A DNA stretch of 64,000 nucleotides from Escherichia coli (GTDB lineage Bacteria > Pseudomonadota > Gammaproteobacteria > Enterobacterales > Enterobacteriaceae), in the NCBI RefSeq assembly GCF_003334315.1, contig NZ_QOWR01000003.1; one strand, given 5' to 3'. A program made the position numbers and the translations under genes. This document shows, piece by piece, positions 41,985-43,148 of the stretch. The stretch's first letter is position 1; the number at the start of each line of letters is the position of its first letter. The notes below the pieces were generated by a model, which did no database searches, was not told the DNA's origin, and was given only the letters and a program-made list of their open reading frames with translations.

Positions 41985-42004
41985 TACAACGTGTAATCAC
42001 TAAG

Positions 42005-42026
42005 GCCGCGTAAGCGGCCTTTTTTA
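42005..42026 (+). terminator. Intrinsic terminator after acrB
   Basis: GGCCGCGTAAGCGGCC hairpin followed by TTTTTT. Confidence 0.8.
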
Positions 42027-42529
42027 TGCATAACCTACGAACATTAAGGAGTAATTGAACCACCAACTCAGGATCTCATACGAAAACCAGTATTAACCAC
42101 GGATAAAATTCATAAAAAATACTGATTGTTAGTTAATTTATATTAAGTAGCGCTAATAGATTTAATAATCCATAATCATTTAGAGGCTATTCTTAATTAT
42201 TTGCGGTAATTTTTTATTCATTCCTCGGTTATTACGTCATATTCAGAGCAATCCTGGTATTAGTGTCACCAATTTCATCTGGCGATAATCCTGAAATGTT
42301 ATGAATAGTTCGAGCAAACTGCTTTTACCTGCTGCGGGTTAGTGCTAGTATGAAAAAGTGAGTCCTGTCCCGCTTCCTTCCTAATTGTAATTTTTCGTAA
42401 TAATGCGATGAAAACCTGCAAAGAGTGGCTTATAGTTAAGCTAACAAACGAGAGGGCAAGTCCAGGTCAGTAAGTTTTTTCCATCCCGAAAGGTGTCCGT
42501 TAGTTCAACCGCTAAGAAGGGGACGCGTT

Positions 42530-42904
42530 ATGGATGAATACTCACCCAAAAGACATGATATCGCACAGCTTAAGTTTCTCTGTGAAACCCTGTATCATGA
42601 CTGCCTTGCAAACCTTGAAGAAAGCAATCATGGCTGGGTAAACGACCCAACCTCGGCGATCAACCTCCAGTTGAATGAACTGATTGAGCATATTGCGACC
42701 TTCGCACTTAATTACAAAATTAAGTATAATGAAGACAATAAGCTCATTGAGCAGATCGACGAATATCTGGATGACACCTTTATGTTGTTCAGTAGTTATG
42801 GTATTAATATGCAGGATCTTCAGAAATGGCGGAAGTCAGGTAATCGACTATTCCGTTGTTTTGTCAATGCGACGAAAGAGAATCCTGCGAGTTTATCTTG
42901 TTAG
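42530..42904 (+). CDS. tomB: Hha toxicity modulator
   Basis: 124 aa, YbaJ family, immediately upstream of hha. Confidence 0.85.
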
Positions 42905-42929
42905 AATTATTACAACCATGGGTAGAAGT

Positions 42930-43148
42930 ATGTCCGAAAAACCTTTAACGAAAACCGATTATTTAATGCGTTTACGTCGTTGCCAGACAATTGACACGCT
43001 GGAGCGTGTTATCGAGAAAAATAAATACGAATTATCAGATAATGAACTGGCGGTATTTTACTCAGCCGCAGATCACCGCCTCGCCGAATTGACCATGAAT
43101 AAACTGTACGACAAGATCCCTTCCTCAGTATGGAAATTTATTCGCTAA
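42930..43148 (+). CDS. hha: Hemolysin expression modulator Hha
   Basis: ATG at 42930 translating [27 protein letters not shown]... (72 aa). Confidence 0.9.

Follow-up and report, generated by a model that had tools for sequence, protein, structure and literature searches.

The 545-bp gap between acrB and tomB in Escherichia coli is probably an ordinary control region with a short leader

What occupies the long non-coding gap between acrB and tomB in Escherichia coli, and how much of it is transcribed together with the tomB-hha operon? The question was raised by a window of 64,000 nucleotides (contig NZ_QOWR01000003.1 of the RefSeq assembly GCF_003334315.1), the whole stretch of DNA analysed here, in which a first-pass annotation made from the sequence alone had described an unusually long, AT-rich leader preceding tomB. 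The window is collinear with positions 459,238–523,338 of MG1655 (reverse complement) at 99.4–99.9% identity. The stop codon of acrB (1049 aa) ends at 41984, and 545 bp follow before tomB begins. Among the 59 annotated gaps of the equivalent MG1655 stretch, which have a median of 109 bp, no other is as long. The gap is identical to that of MG1655 at 544 of 545 positions. The single mismatch (42212, T in the window and C in K-12) lies in the distal AT-rich part, outside all of the elements described below. The gap was found, as a single copy, in 5,424 of 5,426 complete E. coli genomes and was disrupted in about 15 of these 5,424.

Based on the results given below, we suggest, with a probability of about 0.85, that the gap is the ordinary control region that precedes the tomB-hha operon in E. 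coli and has been characterised before. All of its main elements have been described for the E. coli sequence: the K-12 promoter tomBp has the same hexamers, the same transcription start site (TSS), an 87-nt 5′ UTR, autorepression by Hha, an H-NS site in the spacer and a place in the CpxR regulon. In the proposed arrangement, the order of elements from 5′ to 3′ would be the acrAB terminator, about 380 bp of untranscribed AT-rich DNA, a CpxR box, the promoter, the TSS at 42443 and the 87-nt UTR.

The identities of the two genes, TomB and Hha, as proposed in the first-pass annotation, were confirmed by NCBIfam models, both of which scored above their curated cutoffs, and agree with the MG1655 annotation. 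TomB (YbaJ; Hha toxicity modulator, 124 aa; 42530–42904, + strand) reached 234 bits against the equivalog NF007948 (cutoff 108), with positions 1–121 of the 122 in the profile covered. Hha (H-NS co-repressor, 72 aa; 42930–43148, + strand) reached 169 bits against NF008191 (cutoff 90), while the model of its paralogue YdgT gave 48.8 bits, under the cutoff of 101. The hha gene comprises 72 codons from the ATG at 42930; the ORF listing gives only a longer ORF of the same frame, started by TTG. It is located directly downstream of tomB on the same strand, and the spacing of 25 bp is as had been claimed; in nearly all of the 76 related loci, this gap measures 23–28 bp.

The gene order is kept in all related loci, in agreement with the single tomB-hha operon that had been proposed, but this is a simplification, since hha has TSSs of its own. 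Two secondary hha TSSs on the + strand are listed in Table S1 of Kim 2012 (PMC3415461): one at 42815, inside tomB (115-nt UTR, 12 reads), and one at 42914, in the 25-bp spacer (16-nt UTR, 16 reads). An RpoD holoenzyme SELEX site is also listed between hha and tomB (PMC3946193). Because hha has these secondary starts, toxin and antitoxin could be transcribed in differing ratios.

To place the locus in the family, 80 loci from 80 Enterobacteriaceae species were fetched with a TomB query, and the window was aligned with 76 of them (n = 77). The acrB-tomB-hha synteny and a long gap (435–559 bp, GC 0.35–0.40) were found in all loci with the end of acrB in range, and this range of lengths holds over about 20 genera despite the turnover of the sequence. 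The distal DNA is only patchily conserved, most of it being unalignable between genera, with conserved blocks at 42105–42135, 42165–42215 and 42240–42262. Right after the terminator, an insertion of about 74 bp (42031–42104) is specific to Escherichia and corresponds to an alignment gap in all other genera. E. coli genomes carry it once, and nothing else that was examined matched it.

The sigma-70 promoter of tomB-hha was found by a promoter scan, independently of the literature, at 42408–42436 (+ strand), with the −35 hexamer ATGAAA, a 17-bp spacer and the −10 hexamer TATAGT. Both hexamers are near-invariant across the 77 sequences, and the same hexamers have been published as a constitutive RpoD promoter (PMC3946193), which sigma-70 RNA polymerase uses without helpers. 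In Table S1 of Kim 2012 (PMC3415461), a single TSS is listed for tomB, with 53 reads and an 87-nt 5′ UTR; the table covers gene-assigned TSSs only, and unassigned or antisense distal starts would not appear in it. The 51-mer given there, TTTCGTAATAATGCGATGAAAACCTGCAAAGAGTGGCTTATAGTTAAGCTA (ending in TATAGTTAAGCTA), matches the window exactly at 42393–42443 and assigns the published TSS to A42443. The orthologous tomB TSS of Klebsiella uses the same promoter, with a UTR of 97 nt, and in a study of RNase E the tomB/hha substrate transcript was defined from −89 (PMC4191395). In E. coli, a fragment from −198 to −1 drives GFP and is sufficient for promoter activity. In Salmonella, only the promoter nearest to tomB is active, and two predicted further upstream are inactive (PMC5133643); the inactive promoter p622 would, by its presumed position, lie in the distal spacer (PMC5133643). 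Data on this locus were absent from the TSS supplements PMC4782308, PMC4681348 and PMC4161252 and from the ChIP supplement PMC3686432. An upstream candidate promoter, TTTACC-16-TAGTAT (42324–42351), was rejected as weak, unconserved and without a TSS.

With the TSS at 42443, the tomB leader is 87 nt long (42443–42529, + strand), so that transcription with tomB covers just 16% of the gap, the other 458 of the 545 bp preceding the start. As only these 87 bp are leader, the central word of the first-pass annotation was wrong. The same annotation had named what would speak against it, namely a promoter immediately upstream of tomB with the rest of the region untranscribed and unbound. A promoter is indeed mapped near tomB and has the sole listed TSS, but proteins do bind the remaining DNA.

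The remainder of the gap is uneven in its make-up. The acrAB intrinsic terminator (42002–42027, + strand), detected by a terminator scan, begins 18 nt past the acrB stop and consists of a GC-rich 8-bp stem with six GC pairs, a 4-nt loop and a T run (TTTT); the stem and the T run are kept across genera in the 77 Enterobacteriaceae sequences. Since the terminator (42002–42021 plus the T run) is inside the 545 bp, about 500 bp separate it from tomB. The GC content of the gap is 0.376 overall versus 0.522 for the window. The 200-bp stretch of lowest GC begins at 42021 (0.275), a value as low being reached at only 0.4% of window positions. The distal ~300 bp are strongly AT-rich, while the GC content is 0.41 in the promoter-proximal 108 bp (42300–42407) and 0.49 in the 5′ UTR. 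Consequently, of the strongly AT-rich non-coding stretch of 545 bp that had been placed between the acrB terminator and tomB, the length is right, but the strong AT-richness does not extend beyond the distal ~300 bp and the terminator is part of the gap. It is also correct that the gap contains no ORF of 60 aa or more; the largest has 40 aa and is located on the minus strand (42299–42421). A search for repeats gave short ones at chance level only.

The 5′ UTR is moderately conserved in the 77-sequence alignment, and its Shine–Dalgarno (SD) sequence, GGGGA (42519–42523), is invariant. This SD is strong, and the −35 hexamer of the promoter is weak. The minimum free energy of the UTR fold was no better than that of shuffled sequences (z = 0.02), and RNAalifold gave a 4-bp long-range helix without covariation (covariation term −0.26 kcal/mol). 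A hairpin proposed by hand (CAUC/GRUG) was rejected, as it does not exceed shuffles. The motif CCAUCCC (CCATCCC in the DNA, 42481–42487) is shared by 71 of the 72 distinct UTRs, with variable flanks, and in most genera it is complementary to the SD region GGGGAUG. The predicted probability of this pairing is about 0.5–0.8 in many genera and zero in Escherichia. An anti-SD role was rejected, given this zero in Escherichia and an SD pairing probability of 0.77 versus 0.69 for shuffled sequences.

Could most of the 545 bp nevertheless be a long transcribed leader with post-transcriptional control by an upstream ORF, an attenuator or a riboswitch? The gap is the longest of the 59 in the stretch, the Yersinia operon has a second, distal TSS at 188 nt from the ATG, and a peak of the sigma-S holoenzyme is listed in the spacer by SELEX. 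Nevertheless, we consider such a leader very improbable. The mapped starts lie at −87 in E. coli and −97 in Klebsiella, the more distant promoters predicted in Salmonella are inactive, and even the distal Yersinia TSS would yield just 188 nt. In addition, a scan of 41500–43800 against Rfam (E ≤ 1) gave no match, most of the distal sequence cannot be aligned between genera, and a tblastn comparison of nine gap ORFs of at least 10 aa with 72 non-Escherichia gaps gave similarity only over the invariant promoter DNA. The same searches bear on an equally improbable explanation, namely a small gene or sRNA, on one strand or the other, that has escaped annotation in the distal AT-rich DNA. This explanation is favoured by the short conserved blocks at 42105–42135, 42240–42262 and 42296–42306 and by the presence of ORFs of 10–40 aa. 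However, the peptides of these ORFs are not conserved, Rfam gave no match, and no TSS is listed in this DNA. The annotations of the 5,424 RefSeq E. coli genomes list nothing in the gap but IS1 transposases in the insertion strains, and MG1655 has no annotation between acrB and tomB. The conserved ATG near 42296–42306 was rejected as a small-ORF start, since conservation falls on third positions while first and second positions vary, a nucleotide-like pattern, and the ORFs that start from it range from 5 to more than 26 codons, which argues against a small gene.

Two further details of this DNA were observed. At 42296–42312, most non-Escherichia genera have the conserved bipartite block AATGAA-N3-TAAGGA(AC), of which E. 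coli keeps ATG..ATGAAT only; its conservation is not codon-like. The 74-bp insertion contains AAGGAG, followed after 3 nt by a 13-codon ORF started by TTG (42055–42096), which is unconserved even in E. albertii.

Within the ordinary control region that we favour, the invariant part comprises more than the promoter hexamers. The block 42383–42403 is invariant across the 77 sequences and holds a predicted CpxR box, the tandem repeat GTAAT-TTTTC-GTAAT (42387–42401, + strand; −56 to −42). GTAAT-N5-GTAAT fits the pattern of tandem GTAAA-like pentamers, about 5 nt apart, upstream of the −35, and the published CpxR motif is TTTAC-N4–8-TTTAC on the other strand (PMC13353760). The distance from the box to TATAGT is exactly 44 bp in 63 of the 77 sequences. 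Because the bare pattern is not rare in the window (2 matches versus 0.96 expected), the case for the box is built on its conservation, its position and the literature. An UP element was also considered for the invariant block at −60 to −40 and was dropped, as a CpxR box fits better.

The ymoBA promoter of Yersinia pseudotuberculosis has a CpxR motif 56 bp upstream of TSS2, where CpxR~P binds in EMSA (PMC13353760); the activity of this promoter is higher in Cpx-activated mutants (PMC13353760). The ymoB-ymoA operon is orthologous to tomB-hha and has its CpxR motif at the same −56 offset, the binding being shown for Yersinia DNA. It differs in having two TSSs, the distal one at 188 nt, and a proximal UTR of 106 nt, whereas E. 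coli has one listed TSS and a UTR of 87 nt. For E. coli, RegulonDB places tomB and hha in its CpxR regulon, and tomB belongs to the CpxR iModulon (PMC7657598). No CpxR peak is listed at tomB in a ChIP-exo experiment under ethanol stress. Inhibition of LolCDE raises tomB 5.9-fold; this stress induces both Cpx and Rcs, and the rise is compatible with control by either. It is possible that CpxR~P bound at the tandem GTAAT repeats raises transcription during envelope stress from a class-I-like position. That the box is invariant from Escherichia as far as Kluyvera, in line with the experiment in Yersinia, is a small lead.

Upstream of the CpxR box, the distal AT-rich region (42105–42382) has a GC content of 0.29–0.31 and the composition of H-NS-bound DNA. 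TpA steps occur in it at 2.7 times the frequency in the window. The 10-mers resembling the H-NS high-affinity motif, which was reportedly described by Lang et al. in 2007, are 2.5 times as dense there as in the window. In the tomB/acrB spacer, an H-NS site is on record from genomic SELEX, an in vitro method (PMC3946193). Together with the low GC and the richness in TpA, this site supports the H-NS-type composition that had been claimed for the DNA upstream of tomB. Hha has been found at its own promoter in vivo by nickel-enrichment, and in an hha mutant the repression of the fragment from −198 to −1 is relieved. Hence, the 198 bp adjoining tomB suffice for both activity and Hha repression, and the distal ~300 bp are dispensable for both on a plasmid. 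We suggest that the distal AT-rich DNA could act as a nucleation platform for H-NS and Hha, which would place the operon of the co-repressor under negative feedback by its own product, and that it may carry additional operator sites that vary between lineages. A PdhR entry near tomB in SELEX data was discarded as irrelevant to the gap, being classed inside acrB with 8 of 14 motif positions matched.

One such candidate site is a palindrome resembling an RcsAB box. In E. coli, the candidate reads TCAGAGCAATCCTG (42243–42256, + strand; −200 to −187) and was identified from the alignment and from its mismatches to the consensus. The orthologous position in other genera reads TAAGAATATTCCTA/G, which we take to be the consensus of the RcsAB box, TaAGaatatTCctA; this consensus reportedly goes back to Wehland and Bernhard in 2000. 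The best match to TAAGAATATTCCTA has 0–3 mismatches in 68 of the 77 sequences, and in nearly all sequences with a listed position it precedes the CpxR box by 156–187 bp (85 bp in Pseudescherichia). Five bases of the palindrome are invariant (G42246, A42247, A42250, T42252 and C42253). The E. coli copy has five mismatches and is indistinguishable from background, the window containing 27 matches with four mismatches or fewer. Upstream of rcsA and wza in E. coli, the best matches are the published RcsAB boxes, with four mismatches each to the same consensus. No link between RcsB and tomB or ybaJ was found in the papers searched.

It could be imagined that, in most Enterobacteriaceae, Rcs and Cpx jointly govern the operon of this H-NS co-repressor, that Escherichia has lost or weakened the Rcs input, and, separately, that CCAUCCC is an anti-SD element or the site of a trans-acting factor in the control of TomB translation. 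We regard this extension, drawn from sequence comparison, as rather doubtful. Given the decayed palindrome with its five mismatches and the 74-bp insertion, the Rcs input would be lost or weakened in Escherichia. If the proposal is true, the distal AT-rich DNA would be a lineage-variable operator platform.

The distal DNA may also be explained more simply, as a neutral, drift-prone spacer to which H-NS binds incidentally, with the proximal ~200 bp accounting for all regulation. In favour of this, the fragment from −198 to −1 is enough to reproduce activity and Hha repression, most of the distal sequence is unalignable between genera, the 74-bp insertion is private to Escherichia, and the RcsAB-like box has decayed there. 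On the other hand, the length of the gap stays at 435–559 bp despite the turnover, some blocks are fixed in position, including the near-consensus 14-bp palindrome in 68 of the 77 sequences, and H-NS binds the spacer in vitro. On balance, we find a neutral spacer unlikely, though it keeps an appreciable probability, since the −198 fragment shows Hha repression and the distal DNA turns over.

AT-rich upstream regions silenced by H-NS are well known from proU, bgl and horizontally acquired genes. The DNA upstream of tomB resembles these regions in its low GC, many TpA steps, A/T tracts and binding of H-NS in vitro. Unlike them, tomB-hha is core to the Enterobacteriaceae and was not recently acquired. 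Moreover, since the tomB promoter is classed as constitutive and is readily seen in TSS maps, its repression would be a partial feedback and not silencing. Long regulatory 5′ leaders are known for other enterobacterial regulators, such as rpoS, csgD and flhDC. The feature in common with these is a long non-coding gap before a regulator operon, whereas the tomB leader has just 87 nt, no stable or covarying structure and no Rfam family. In practice, TSS data are needed before a long AT-rich gap preceding a regulator is taken for a long leader. Beyond the correct annotation, the significance of this textbook E. coli region is small. The RcsAB-like palindrome and the conserved UTR motif are minor new leads and not discoveries, which may interest those who study envelope-stress input to H-NS/Hha silencing.

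Several minor observations concern the surroundings of the operon and its variants. The tomB-hha module with both flanking gaps (41985–43319) has a GC content of about 0.39–0.41 versus 0.52 for the window; this would usually be taken as a sign of horizontal acquisition, but the module keeps its synteny throughout the family. In one of the disrupted genomes, E. coli FAM21845 (locus L084), an IS1 element with a 9-bp target duplication, equivalent to window positions 42422–42430, sits exactly in the spacer between the −35 and −10 of the tomB promoter, so that the CpxR box and the −35 are parted from the −10. In the gap between hha and maa, a perfect match to the CRP consensus, TGTGATCTTTATCACA, was found at 43226–43241, the sole match in the window against 0.04 expected; the scan also flagged it as a hairpin on the minus strand. 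The published maa TSS lies at about 43294 (26-nt UTR), and TGTGATCTTTATCACA is centred about 60 bp upstream of it, which is a class-I position.
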